The notes under the pieces are model-generated. The model ran no database searches and had not been told where the DNA came from. It worked only from the letters and a program-made list of their open reading frames with translations. A stretch of DNA of 64,000 nt, taken from Candidatus Babeliales bacterium. Its GTDB lineage: Bacteria; Babelota; Babeliae; Babelales; JANWKD01. Location: NCBI GenBank assembly GCA_963762115.1, contig CAVXJH010000006.1:416001-480000 (forward strand), in the 5' to 3' direction. Of the stretch, positions 42,193 through 59,334 are shown in pieces. A program made the position numbers and the translations under genes. Position 1 is the first letter of the stretch. Every line of letters begins with the position of its first letter.

Positions 42193-43602
42193 ATGAAAAA
42201 ATGTATAACTATTTTTTTTCTTTTTATAGGCATTACATCAACTATACAAGCAAATTTAGGTACTATTTTTGATACATTGATGGGAGCTAATACGAATCCA
42301 TATTTTCAAGCATGTATAACAAATAAAATTAAAGAACCATGGTTTCCTGATAGTAACTTTGCTTATTATTTTTCTCGTTCACTCTTTGAGAAATATTCTA
42401 TAGAAAATGGATTATCACAAATAAAATTGAAAATTCCCAAAATTATCCATCAAATTTGGTTAGGAGGTTTTGTGCCAGTGAAATATGTTGATTGGATAGC
42501 AACATGGCATGAGCATCATCCTGATTGGACAATTATAATGTGGATGGATGAAGATATACAAAATCTTAACTTAGTAAATAAAGATTTGTTTCTGACGGCA
42601 AAAAATTATGGAGAAAAGTCAGATATTCTTCGGTTGGAGCTTATTAATATGTTTGGGGGGTTATACGTTGATACTGATTATGAATGCTTGAAGCCATTAG
42701 ATGCGTTTCATTATTGTAATAGTTTTTATGTAAGCTCTGCGGGGATTGGTGAGTGTGGCGTTGGTATTGTTAATGCTTTAATAGGTGCTTCACCACGGCA
42801 TCCGCTCATTGGTAAATTGGTGCATTCTATGAAAGCAGCGGCACACATGCCTATGCTGAGTCAAAGAAGTGGGCCTATGTATTTTACCAAAATATTTTTT
42901 GAAAATGTTGAAGAATGTTCAAAAGATGTTGTTATGTATCCTGCTGACTATCTTGCGGCTCATGGTGGTATTTCATATGCTACTCATTGGTTTGATGCTA
43001 GTTGGTTAAATCCATCAGGATTAAATCAAAGGATACTTCATGATTCAAGATTAGAAAAAACGTTAACGCCATTATTTTTTAAAAAGAAATCTGGTGGCAA
43101 GTATCCTAGGATTTTCCCAAAATTATATTATGATATTTGGACTGGAATATTTGAACAACTTAAGAATCGTACTATTGTTGAATTAGGTGTAACGAATTTT
43201 ATCGTTGATTCTAGAATGGATCTGGGTGACCTGAAGTATATAGGCATTTCTCCCGTCAAATTTTTGGCCCTGCAACAACGACTATTTTATAATGATCATG
43301 CCAATCGGGTCTATTGGTGGAAAAATTGTTTGGTGGAAGGGATTCCTCAATGTGGATTATTAATTCTTGGTGATTGCATGGAATATCTTTCTTATGCAGA
43401 TTGTATGACTCTTTTACAAAAAGTTGCTTATTGTGATCCTGAGATTGTTATTATTGCTCATAATAGTGCTCAGAATAATAGTGATACCGAGCTTGGGCAA
43501 CAAAGATCACTTAATATGGGTCAGGCGCCATTTAATCTTCCTAATCCTGATAAGATAATTACTATAGAGAAAAAGACGTATGGTGTTTGGAGAAATTGTT
43601 AG
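42193..43602 (+). CDS. GT32 (DXD, Och1/Sur1-like) glycosyltransferase with signal peptide and degenerate methyltransferase-like C-domain
   Basis: IPKIIHQIWLG, SDILRLE...FGGLYVDTD, SGP..FT; C-terminal IVELG...N.D...G..RSLN...PFNLP.P. Confidence 0.85.
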   Translation: MKKCITIFFLFIGITSTIQANLGTIFDTLMGANTNPYFQACITNKIKEPWFPDSNFAYYFSRSLFEKYSIENGLSQIKLKIPKIIHQIWLGGFVPVKYVDWIATWHEHHPDWTIIMWMDEDIQNLNLVNKDLFLTAKNYGEKSDILRLELINMFGGLYVDTDYECLKPLDAFHYCNSFYVSSAGIGECGVGIVNALIGASPRHPLIGKLVHSMKAAAHMPMLSQRSGPMYFTKIFFENVEECSKDVVMYPADYLAAHGGISYATHWFDASWLNPSGLNQRILHDSRLEKTLTPLFFKKKSGGKYPRIFPKLYYDIWTGIFEQLKNRTIVELGVTNFIVDSRMDLGDLKYIGISPVKFLALQQRLFYNDHANRVYWWKNCLVEGIPQCGLLILGDCMEYLSYADCMTLLQKVAYCDPEIVIIAHNSAQNNSDTELGQQRSLNMGQAPFNLPNPDKIITIEKKTYGVWRNC

Positions 43603-43617
43603 TAAAGGAAAAGTAAT

Positions 43618-44961
43618 TTAATGCACAGAAAATTGAAAGTTTTCTTTGGTTGAGACTTTCTTTTGTTGTATAAAAGCTTGGTAGAAAATTACGATGCCAA
43701 GTGCGGTTAACAATAATAAAATCGGTTCAAACATGAGGCGATATCGTCCACAGCCATCGTGCCCGGTGATAAAAGAAAAATATCCTATATAACTGCAAAA
43801 AAAGCTTAATAAAGCATATTTTTTTTGCAAGAATAAATATATTAGAGCAATGATAACAAATAAATATTGTAATAATAACCAAATAGCTTCACATAAAGCG
43901 ATCAAGCTAAGATAAGACGAGGTTGATCCAAAAGTAATGTATTTTTGCGCTCGTTCTAAAAAATTTCCTTGCATGTTGAAAAACGAGCAGGAACCCCCTT
44001 GTATTTCAGGATTAAACATAGACTTTAATTGTGTTGAATAAAGCCCAAAAAAAGTTCTCATCATAGCATTTGCCCAAGCAGAAAAAATAATAAATGGGCG
44101 TTCTCTCAGAATCATAAAAAATATATTTTTGCTGAGTTCGAGTTTTGCTTCATTGTTTTTACAAGAATCTATCTTTTGGATAATGTTTTCTCGTGTAATT
44201 GTGTCTAAGCGTGGCAAAATTCTTCGCGGCAAAAAATAGATAAAGATATTTTCGCTCACTAAATTTGTAACACAAAAGATTCCAAAAACTTTTTTATTAT
44301 ATGCCATATAATTGATAATAGGGAAATAAAAACATGAAAACATTAGAGTGAAAAGTATCATCTTGTGCTTTTTAGTTTTCGAAGGCATAAAGAAGAGTAT
44401 GCAACTGAGGGGAGTAATAAAATACAAAGCAACAGGTTTTACTATGACAGAACAACCTAACAAAAAAGCGGCTAGAGAGAGATTAGATTTGTTCTGTTGT
44501 TTAATAAATAAACAAAAAAAATAGAGAAATCCCACTAAAAATGTGGCAAGAAGTATTTCAGCAAGGATGAGCTGTGCATAAACCAAAAAACCTATATTGA
44601 ATGAAAATAAGAATAATACAAGATAAGCACTATTTTGATTAAAGAGTTGTAAGGCAAGGTTATAGAGCATAAAACTGCATAAAATGCCGAGCAGTATTTG
44701 AAAAATAAATAGTATGTTACTTTGATAAAATAGCGAGAAAATAATACCTAAAAACCAATGATAACCAATAGTATGACTTGGCATTGTATTGGGATATTCT
44801 GGATGGTACAGATTCCCAGTAGCTGCATAATATTGACCAATTAATTCATATTCTGATGAATCAACATCACGGTGGCCTTTAAGGGTGAGCTTATTGTATA
44901 ATATGCTTGAAAAACCAATAAAAAGAGTGAGGCAGCCAAGAATAAATATTATTTTTTTCAT
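43618..44961 (-). CDS. ArnT/PMT-like (GT39/GT83, GT-C) membrane glycosyltransferase
   Basis: DSSEY..IG, TIGY..FL, ILAEIL, VKP, RYRL.FEP; many TM segments. Confidence 0.78.
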   Translation of the reverse strand: MKKIIFILGCLTLFIGFSSILYNKLTLKGHRDVDSSEYELIGQYYAATGNLYHPEYPNTMPSHTIGYHWFLGIIFSLFYQSNILFIFQILLGILCSFMLYNLALQLFNQNSAYLVLFLFSFNIGFLVYAQLILAEILLATFLVGFLYFFCLFIKQQNKSNLSLAAFLLGCSVIVKPVALYFITPLSCILFFMPSKTKKHKMILFTLMFSCFYFPIINYMAYNKKVFGIFCVTNLVSENIFIYFLPRRILPRLDTITRENIIQKIDSCKNNEAKLELSKNIFFMILRERPFIIFSAWANAMMRTFFGLYSTQLKSMFNPEIQGGSCSFFNMQGNFLERAQKYITFGSTSSYLSLIALCEAIWLLLQYLFVIIALIYLFLQKKYALLSFFCSYIGYFSFITGHDGCGRYRLMFEPILLLLTALGIVIFYQAFIQQKKVSTKENFQFSVH

Positions 44962-58306: not shown

Positions 58307-58512
58307 AGTTCACCTTTTTTTTAAATGTTATTGGTATGGTGTAATGATTGCATTGTTTTCTACCATAACAAGAAGGTTATACCATGTAATTTTAAAAAGA
58401 TGAAATGTTGTATTTTTTATGGGTAATGTAAATATGGTGTTGAGAAATATTAATTATACATGTTAGAAAAAAACAAGAGTGAAAATATCAAAAAAGAAGG
58501 TGAATAAGAGCC

Positions 58513-59334
58513 ATGGGATACAAAAGAGTAGTGAAAAAAATATTTGTATTAATACCTTTTTTAGTGCTGTTTTTTGTAAACGCACATGCACATCATATTG
58601 CTCTGATTTCTATTCCTAAATGCGGTACACATTTGCTAAAAAAACTTTTATTAAAAATGATTGATTCAGAGGCCTATATTGAACCCCAAAAGGTATTTTT
58701 ATATGATGAAACGAGTATTCAAGATTTTTTTTCGAAATCTGCATTATTGAGTTCTCATGCATTACATACTGAAGAAAATGTCGAAAAAATAGCTAATTTA
58801 GCTATTAAGAAAATATTTATTTATCGAGATCCTCGAGATCAAATTATTTCAGCTGCTTTTTGGATGAAAAAAAATCGTAATATATGGCGTTTATTTGAAA
58901 AAGCTCCCATGAGTAGGATTATTGATGAACTTATATATGGTGGTGGATCGATTTGGTCATATATATTTTCATGTCGAATCCCTTGGCAAGATTTATATGG
59001 AATAGCTTCATTTTATAATTATTATTTACCATGGCGATTTGAGCTGAATGTTTATACAACTACTTTTGAAAAGTTAGTGGGTCCACAAGGTGGCGGTAGT
59101 CAAGAATTGCAATATCAAGAAATTTTTGCGATTGCTAATTTTCTTGGTATATCCATAACTTTTGAAGAAGTTCAGGCTTTAGCAGCAGAGTTATTTGGGG
59201 GGACTCAAACATTTCGTGAAGGCAAGATTGGTTCATGGAAAAAATATTTTTCCCAAACCCATAAAGAAGCATTTAAGAATGTTGCTGGTCAGCTTCTCAT
59301 TGATTTGGGATATGAAAGAGACATAAATTGGTAA
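58513..59334 (+). CDS. Sulfotransferase (Sulfotransfer_1-like) with signal peptide
   Basis: 5'-PSB SIPKCGTH, 3'-PB YRDPRDQIIS, C-terminal FREGKIGSWK. Confidence 0.88.
   Translation: MGYKRVVKKIFVLIPFLVLFFVNAHAHHIALISIPKCGTHLLKKLLLKMIDSEAYIEPQKVFLYDETSIQDFFSKSALLSSHALHTEENVEKIANLAIKKIFIYRDPRDQIISAAFWMKKNRNIWRLFEKAPMSRIIDELIYGGGSIWSYIFSCRIPWQDLYGIASFYNYYLPWRFELNVYTTTFEKLVGPQGGGSQELQYQEIFAIANFLGISITFEEVQALAAELFGGTQTFREGKIGSWKKYFSQTHKEAFKNVAGQLLIDLGYERDINW

Follow-up and report, generated by a model that had tools for sequence, protein, structure and literature searches.

A 64,000-nucleotide stretch of the genome of a Candidatus Babeliales bacterium (contig CAVXJH010000006.1, positions 416,001 to 480,000; hereafter the window) contains a glycan island in which five cofactor-dependent enzymes begin with Sec-type leaders: a glycosyltransferase of family GT32, a GT114-like glycosyltransferase, two S-adenosylmethionine (SAM) methyltransferases (MTases) and a sulfotransferase that uses 3′-phosphoadenosine-5′-phosphosulfate (PAPS). 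Judged from sequence, such tagging of glycan enzymes and of the enzymes that make their donors is real and lineage-wide. The leaders on transferases without recognisable fuel genes, together with the tagged fuel-making enzymes of relatives, suggest that a surface sugar coat is likely completed with host metabolites, outside the bacteria's own cytoplasm. The window is part of contig C6, in a 1.53-Mb genome (34% GC, 95% complete), which we infer to be of the Babelota (Babeliales; Babelota/Dependentiae) because of its named relatives, its three TLC nucleotide translocase genes and its two secretins, both encoded outside the window. Among the 120 listed homologs of the GT114-like protein, four of five organism names are Dependentiae or Babeliaceae and the fifth is Chlamydiota.

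The GT32 gene (42193-43602, plus strand) encodes a leader, a GT32 domain (PF04488, 45.1 bits against a cut-off of 23) with a DxD motif at residues 160-162, of which D160 and D162 are conserved, and a degenerate class I methyltransferase-like C-terminal domain, for which a relative has a matching MTase-like protein with a leader (E = 1e-12). The relative G014 has a similar island that also encodes this GT32-MTase fusion. The second tagged enzyme (49027-49968, plus strand; PF24785) is a GT114/RXYLT1-like glycosyltransferase. The initial annotation called it GT47-like, or an exostosin; PF03016 (GT47 exostosin) does not match the window protein and has precomputed matches to some of its homologs, and GT114 is the better label. 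Its best solved relative is chlorovirus A075L (E = 9e-26 with the single sequence, 8.5e-55 with a profile). A075L is a GT114 beta-xylosyltransferase, set against its former GT47 label, in which Asp73 is the base and Asn148, Arg158 and Arg208 bind the donor (PMC11571054). When the alignment is read by eye, with the numbering shifted by two residues, these four residues fall on D67, N139, R164 and R217 of the mature window protein, and the four catalytic and donor columns are invariant or nearly so among its homologs. The protein is predicted to be a UDP-xylose-dependent beta-xylosyltransferase, and its acceptor may differ from that of A075L because Asn202 of the viral enzyme is replaced by Gly. 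The two MTases are a class I enzyme with a non-canonical motif I (49997-50749, plus strand; PF13489, PF08241) and a Methyltransf_24 enzyme (50800-51498, plus strand; PF13578). The sulfotransferase (58513-59334, plus strand; PF00685, 37.9 bits against a cut-off of 22) has a leader-bearing paralog on contig C3, and its translation contains motifs that we take to be the 5′- and 3′-phosphate-binding motifs of sulfotransferases. Catalytic motifs are thus intact in the GT32 domain, the GT114-like protein and the sulfotransferase.

Leaders were called by two hand-written rules, strict and relaxed, for a basic n-region, a hydrophobic h-region and small residues at -3/-1; on internal Met positions the strict rule fires 6 times in 4194 and the relaxed rule 37 times in 4198. 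All five open reading frames (ORFs) pass both rules, as expected from the initial annotation, which had placed Sec-like signals at these N-termini; each has a basic n-region, an uncharged h-region and a c-region of small residues, and the segments are short and cleavable-looking by sequence. The same annotation described the GT4, AsnB and other MTases of the locus as lacking signals, and the rules agree: the GT4 (55074), AsnB (56342), MTase-GT2 fusion (59351) and MTases at 34413, 35057, 36979 and 51504 are leaderless. Leader enrichment particular to the locus was considered and rejected, as the strict rule flags 5 of its 13 soluble enzymes (38%) and 531 of 1418 ORFs genome-wide (37%). Since the rules also give false positives on upstream ORF extensions, for example in DNA polymerase I (Pol I) and transketolase, the claim rests on conservation and a start-site test, and not on the rules alone. 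A Shine-Dalgarno (SD) motif precedes the leader start in four of the five genes; the fifth was tested at an upstream TTG and not at its ATG, and for the GT114-like gene the ORF finder begins at TTG 49015 and the ATG is at 49027. Genome-wide, SD motifs precede 303 of 538 strict-leader starts against 346 of 6044 internal Mets. In none of the five window genes does an SD-bearing start codon lie between the h-region and the catalytic domain.

The leaders are kept among close homologs. They are found on 96 of the 120 listed homologs of the GT114-like protein (321 found) and on 98 of the 120 listed homologs of the sulfotransferase (418 found), and many of the unflagged members of both families, inspected by eye, have truncated starts or leaders missed by the rule. 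GT32 homologs occur in 12 of 41 genomes, with 24 of 25 complete homologs in the fetched loci flagged. For the MTase at 50800, leaders fade with distance along the 150 hits listed of 2112, from 18 in the first 30 to 6 in the second 30 and 3 in the final 90. Support for the MTase at 49997 is thinner, because the 201 genomes surveyed contain no more than two close homologs; the rule flags one of them, and the other looks leader-like by eye. A cluster look-up of 20 proteins gave one organism name, so Babelota membership is not implied for most database homologs, nor a free-living life for the leaderless, bacterial-looking ones. Leaders on homologs from free-living bacteria, which the initial annotation had named as a point that would speak against export, are absent from the six plasmid-borne GT32 homologs checked among 175 records (Levilactobacillus, Lactococcus, Nostoc, Streptomonospora, Skermanella and Burkholderia), one of which is uninformative with an annotated start inside the domain. 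Proteins with class I aminoacyl-tRNA-synthetase motifs, taken as a control, have leaders in 0 of 7 cases. The nearest relatives of the GT114-like protein outside the Babelota are viral enzymes, mostly without leaders (4 of 63 viral homologs flagged). Of its metagenome homologs, 25 of 71 are flagged, and the neighbours of flagged ones are themselves flagged in 64 of 97 cases, against 36 of 282 for the others. In a tree of the GT114-like family, built with half of the database and viral rows left out and with 6 of 164 rows lacking the anchor motif, 67 of 72 flagged rows fall within one 85-row group (support 0.70), which includes seven rows of unassigned origin, several with long anchors. One Chlamydiota-labelled GT114-like protein with a leader (P0083, a single record) groups among the tagged homologs.

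The enzymes that make the donors are tagged as well in relatives. MetK occurs in 17 of 214 Babelota genomes and has a leader in 14; in 12 of these 14 the first conserved motif has no Met ahead of it (GTG and TTG starts lie outside this check), and of the three untagged copies two, from one genus, have no leader and one looks truncated. In a 137-row MetK tree (midpoint root only), 48 of 49 flagged database sequences fall in an 88-row clade (SH-aLRT 88) together with all 17 Babelota copies, and the other 49 rows, with names from DPANN, other archaea, the candidate phyla radiation and Marinimicrobia, contain one false flag. A fusion of Sat and adenosine 5′-phosphosulfate (APS) kinase, that is, a PAPS synthase, is encoded by 12 of 214 genomes; each of the 11 intact copies bears a leader, and none has an SD-bearing inner start. 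Among the 30 best-scoring loci for nucleotide-sugar dehydrogenases (here UDP-glucose dehydrogenase, Ugd), which are the top of a ranking and not a random draw, 26 of 29 parsed loci are tagged; again none of the 26 has an SD-bearing inner start, and the two leaderless ones adjoin leaderless genes. The islands of four relatives (G014, G020, G035 and G037) contain tagged GalU, 4,6-dehydratases, an RmlD-like reductase, DegT, Fcl, GT2 and GT4. Three database MetK entries (P0401, P0423 and P0391) begin inside or after the leader encoded in the corresponding genome sequences (L123, L121 and L116). In genome G058, a tagged MetK (L046) adjoins a gene that resembles, by eye, a TLC nucleotide translocase. 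The twelfth PAPS synthase (L109:16900-18730, G037) is frameshifted, and its first piece has a leader-like start.

These counts bear on the possibility that the leaders are by-products, either untranslated extensions or fused remnants, and that the enzymes start further in and stay cytoplasmic. The 37% of ORFs that begin with a leader speak for it, as does Pol I, which shows a leader-like extension in 7 of 27 relatives; five of the seven have an SD-bearing inner start and two an inner ATG without SD. Leader-like extensions do arise, then, without proof of export, and the transketolase, aldolase and DNA ligase of this genome behave like Pol I. Three of 17 MetK and 2 of 29 Ugd are, clearly or apparently, leaderless. 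What separates the glycan and donor enzymes from Pol I is that SD-bearing downstream starts are absent from the five window genes, the 26 Ugd and the 11 PAPS synthases. Moreover, leaders are retained across many families although the leader sequences have diverged, and both leaderless Ugd sit among leaderless genes. We consider the by-product explanation improbable. For Pol I itself (G000:C6:284148-286985; L131-L153), the in-frame extension is present in five of five own-family genomes examined and in both of family f17, in most cases together with an inner start, and L153 has SD motifs at both starts, which would fit either a chance extension or a dual-start isoform.

It is even less probable that the segments are reversed, uncleaved anchors that tether the catalytic domains to the inner membrane on its cytoplasmic side, the other point that the initial annotation had set against export. 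The sulfotransferase segment, with a 19-residue hydropathy of 2.18, would suit an anchor, but only 2-16% of the members of leader families reach a value of 2.0. In all five window leaders the net positive charge is greater before than after the h-region, consistent with a C-terminus-out topology, and the same holds for 82 of 96 and 90 of 98 family members, 14 of 14 MetK, 24 of 26 Ugd and 9 of 11 PAPS synthases. The leaders of the two secretins show the same pattern. Leader segments are also mostly less hydrophobic than membrane helices, in a comparison biased by a helix set picked by threshold. A signal peptidase I is encoded in the genome (112 bits, cut-off 47). We regard Sec-type export of the five enzymes as very probable.

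As to the donors, the initial annotation asked whether the genome lacks SAM and PAPS synthesis as well as nucleotide-sugar synthesis. For SAM and PAPS it appears to do so, as no MetK, Sat, APS kinase or member of the CysD/PAPS-reductase family was found in this 95%-complete genome; nor was a true UDP-glucose dehydrogenase, the only match being of WecC type at 29%. For nucleotide sugars it does not, since Gmd, Fcl, ManC, WecB, WecC, GalE and GalU are all present and leaderless. Because MetK, PAPS synthesis and Ugd were not found, an outside source is needed on this gene content for SAM, for PAPS and, should it be the donor, for UDP-xylose, a conclusion bounded by the 95% completeness of the assembly. 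Other enzymes of this genome are tagged too. A Pfam scan of the first 330 residues of 397 of 402 representatives of leader-bearing families (four of the five omitted are window genes) identified glutamine synthetase, glucokinase, an N-acetylglucosamine-kinase-like protein, threonine aldolase, MTases, acetyltransferases and two more sulfotransferases, along with some false flags. Eight tagged loci (G000: C6:182191, C6:218255, C5:24641, C5:142514, C3:381649, C3:242965, C5:3634 and C5:6000) encode glutamine synthetase, glucokinase, the N-acetylglucosamine-kinase-like protein, threonine aldolase, a cyclopropane-synthase-like protein, a DOT1-like and another MTase, and a histone deacetylase (HDAC). 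Leaders are also found on MutS-III-domain, thymidylate-synthase-like and DnaJ-domain proteins (G000:C7:129594, C6:311151 and C3:553011). A second tagged glycan cluster (G000:C7:142003-146369) comprises GT10, GT2, GT32 and FkbM genes, all with leader-like starts, and adjoins a large multi-pass membrane protein, an arrangement also seen in G001.

The island in the window is two-tiered: leaderless GT4, AsnB, flippase and GT2 genes on the one hand, and GT-C genes followed by the tagged enzymes, on the same strand and 23-82 nucleotides apart, on the other. Four unannotated membrane proteins of about 400 residues form one family, encoded on the plus strand at 46581-47771, 47810-49003, 40911-42110 and 37729-38940; the last three are 50%, 38% and 39% identical to the first. 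The gene at 46581 heads a same-strand run that ends in the GT114-like gene and the two tagged MTases, with intergenic gaps of 23-50 nucleotides, and the gene at 40911 lies directly upstream of the tagged GT32 with a gap of 82 nucleotides. According to its structural model (pLDDT 91.7), the 46581 protein, the one of the four paralogs that was modelled, has a GT-C fold. In VIA alignment its best matches are Pmt1-2 (Z 17.5, rmsd 3.7, 302 aligned), Pmt4 (16.7), ArnT (15.6) and ALG12, spanning Z 17.5-13.6, and the top 20 rows of the search (Z 8.4-17.5) are all GT-C or GPI-transamidase folds. D35, an acidic residue of the first external loop, is invariant in the family. Of 201 genomes, 27 encode this family, and GtrB-like GT2 genes often lie next to it. 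On the minus strand, a PMT_2 GT-C (43618-44961; PF13231, E = 8e-12) has an N-terminal hydrophobic stretch that is the first helix of a multi-pass protein with six further predicted helices; next to it, a protein with six predicted helices and no Pfam match (44968-46419) is probably another GT-C. A leaderless GtrB/ArnC/PgfS-like polyprenyl-phosphate glycosyltransferase (40037-40969, plus strand; PF00535, with the PgfS and ArnC models below their cut-offs) has paralogs at 35832 and 38932. A leaderless minus-strand operon (51504-58306, genes overlapping by 4-10 nucleotides) encodes, by Pfam and NCBIfam, an AsnB-type amidotransferase, GT4, a Wzx-like flippase-GT4 fusion and an MTase, and a leaderless MTase-GT2 fusion (59351-60763, minus strand; Pfam) follows the sulfotransferase. 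In the GT2 paralog at 38932-39900 (minus strand), a stop codon precedes the in-frame N-terminal GT2 motif, and the likely start is in another frame across an A-run; this broken start is either a sequencing error or slippage.

These features suggest a scheme that we favour slightly over its competitors taken together, in which host metabolites reach a periplasmic or surface space and serve there to extend, methylate and sulfate a lipid-linked envelope glycan. The leaderless GT4, AsnB and GT2 enzymes would assemble lipid-linked sugars at the cytoplasmic side of the inner membrane, and the Wzx-like flippase would move sugars out. GT-C proteins would then pass the lipid-linked sugars to an acceptor at the outer face of that membrane, and the exported GT32, GT114-like xylosyltransferase, MTases and sulfotransferase would complete the glycan in the periplasm or at the surface. 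Host SAM, PAPS and UDP-xylose would enter through a degenerate outer membrane free of lipopolysaccharide (LPS), the same route that must bring host ATP to the inner-membrane ATP/ADP translocases. The outer membrane of Babeliales is described as degenerate (PMC4776705), Babela has three porins and three ATP/ADP translocases (PMC4378268), and in Chromulinavorax LPS genes are absent and the periplasm is electron-dense (PMC6561590). In relatives, exported MetK, PAPS synthase, GalU and UDP-glucose dehydrogenase would remake SAM, PAPS and UDP-sugars in the same space. Enzymes that need ATP, UTP and NAD work only where these occur, so such a compartment must hold cytosol-type metabolites; since the ATP/ADP translocases lie in the inner membrane, host ATP would be present in the periplasm. 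A bolder version, which we hold tentatively and at somewhat less than even chance, is a second, extracytoplasmic metabolism: a host-open periplasm with exported SAM synthetase, PAPS synthase, nucleotide-sugar enzymes, kinases and glutamine synthetase, which would feed a glycan line on top of GT-C initiation as a counterpart of the ER-Golgi lumen, run on host ATP that never enters the bacterial cytoplasm.

The main competitor is a two-step route in which the type II system passes Sec-exported enzymes on to the parasite vacuole or the host cytosol, where they would make a matrix or a coat or modify host molecules, much as in giant-virus glycosylation in the host cytoplasm or Chlamydia glycogen in the vacuole. 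The window itself contains type II secretion genes (gspF, gspG and further pseudopilin-like genes; 16660-21307, minus strand), with GspG at 96.1 bits above its cut-off of 88.85 and GspF at 360.9 below its cut-off of 424, and type II secretion is a possible onward route for Sec-exported proteins. It is the sole secretion system reported for Babela in the accessible account (PMC4378268). Set against this, the tagged genes of the window trail GT-C-fold genes on the same strand at gaps of 23-82 nucleotides, and this co-location favours the periplasm or surface for this locus. MetK and PAPS synthase would also be partly redundant in the host cytosol, an argument weaker for a vacuole lumen; exported donor synthesis would make most sense where the host's own enzymes are missing. 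We therefore rate secretion beyond the cell surface as rather unlikely for these enzymes, although both readings could hold, for different enzymes.

Several observations, beside the Pol I extensions described above, weigh against completion of the glycan in a host-fed periplasm. In size, NAD and GDP-sugars come close to the most that general porins let through. Since leaderless enzymes of this genome make GDP-fucose and several UDP-sugars, part of the donor supply could be the bacterium's own; the proposal of the initial annotation that the enzymes act outside the cytoplasm with host donors is thus supported for SAM and PAPS, for which synthesis genes were not found, and loses ground for these sugars. 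The same leaders are found on clearly host-directed proteins (ankyrin, RING, UCH, HDAC). Coupling of tagged enzymes to the GT-C family is not obligatory, because the largest tagged islands seen (G020 and G037) have no match to the 46581 family and that family is present in only 27 genomes. Cysteine parity, tried as an independent proof of export, gave no signal: leader-bearing proteins show no bias towards even cysteine numbers (183 of 358 against 207 of 433) although VKOR is present in five of five genomes (DsbB in none of the five), and there is consequently no sign that most tagged proteins stay in an oxidising periplasm. Finally, Babela grows within a vacuole, a further barrier to host donors (PMC4378268).

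Among known systems, the vacuolar glycogen of Chlamydia is the closest kin in principle, and giant-virus glycosylation is the closest in sequence for the GT114-like protein. Chlamydia trachomatis makes glycogen in the inclusion lumen (Gehre et al. 2016, PMC4829429); in both cases an intracellular bacterium would export sugar enzymes that are normally cytoplasmic and feed them host nucleotide sugar. Chlamydia does so with type III secretion, one storage polymer and the host transporter SLC35D2 (PMC4829429), whereas here there are Sec-type leaders, many transferase families, methylation and sulfation, and relatives that tag SAM, PAPS and UDP-sugar synthesis. Giant viruses likewise encode transferases and nucleotide-sugar enzymes used with host metabolites (PMC4691112, PMC11571054), and the catalytic base and phosphate-binding residues of A075L are retained in the window protein. 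Unlike the viruses, whose homologs rarely have a leader, a bacterium must first move the enzymes across its own membrane. The Sec and type II secretomes of Babela (PMC4378268) and Chromulinavorax (PMC6561590) share the same leaders at the same high frequency, 44% of coding sequences having signal peptides in Chromulinavorax; in the parts available, these accounts list ankyrin, ubiquitin-system, protease and nuclease effectors and not tagged glycan, SAM or PAPS enzymes. Our literature search, which left out most subscription journals and supplements, found no paper on tagged glycan, SAM/MetK or PAPS enzymes in Babelota. The high leader frequency is already published, and the tagged enzymes were not met in the literature searched.

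The island resembles GtrAB/ArnCT- and PMT-type glycosylation in its GT2 polyprenyl-phosphate transferases and GT-C-fold membrane proteins. To our knowledge, those bacterial systems use only lipid-linked donors outside the cytoplasm, whereas the enzymes tagged for that outer side in the island are nucleotide-, SAM- and PAPS-dependent. Eukaryotic ER-to-Golgi maturation, with the GT32 Och1, RXYLT1 and Golgi sulfotransferases, has a similar plan: the glycan is begun on a lipid, then extended from nucleotide sugars and decorated outside the cytoplasm. Enzymes of the Golgi keep uncleaved anchors and receive finished donors through lumenal transporters; unlike in the Golgi, Babelota relatives tag the donor-making enzymes themselves. 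Of the "outsourced Golgi-like pathway" proposed initially, only the order of steps remains, as relatives tag their own donor synthesis and the nearest non-Babelota kin of the GT114-like protein are viral.

Textbooks place SAM synthetase, PAPS synthase and UDP-glucose dehydrogenase in the cytoplasm, and a periplasm is normally without ATP, UTP and NAD. Leaders kept on these enzymes across families would imply a nucleotide-fuelled compartment outside the bacterial cytoplasm. If so, a gene found in a metabolic reconstruction of these parasites could no longer be read as a sign of a cytoplasmic pathway. The tagged enzymes also suggest a possible coat for cells without LPS. Database entries often begin downstream of the leaders, which may explain why these have been overlooked.

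Some further features of the window and genome were noted. The only RNA gene found in the window by Rfam is a tRNA (32528-32601), about 1.1 kb ahead of the first gene of the glycan island. At the other end, the island is adjoined by a RING-finger protein with a leader-like start (60844-61395, minus strand), probably a host-directed E3 ligase. An MlaD/MCE gene precedes the type II secretion genes (14992-21307 together), among which a GspH-like gene lies beside GspF and GspG. A search of genome contigs with the protein starting at 49015 returned a single locus, in a "Candidatus Babeliales" record, and a phage search returned one unannotated record. The genome has four EamA transporter loci, none within a glycan cluster; one EamA gene (G000:C3:259554-260491) and a transaldolase-like gene (C5:53377-54031) are each split into two ORFs.

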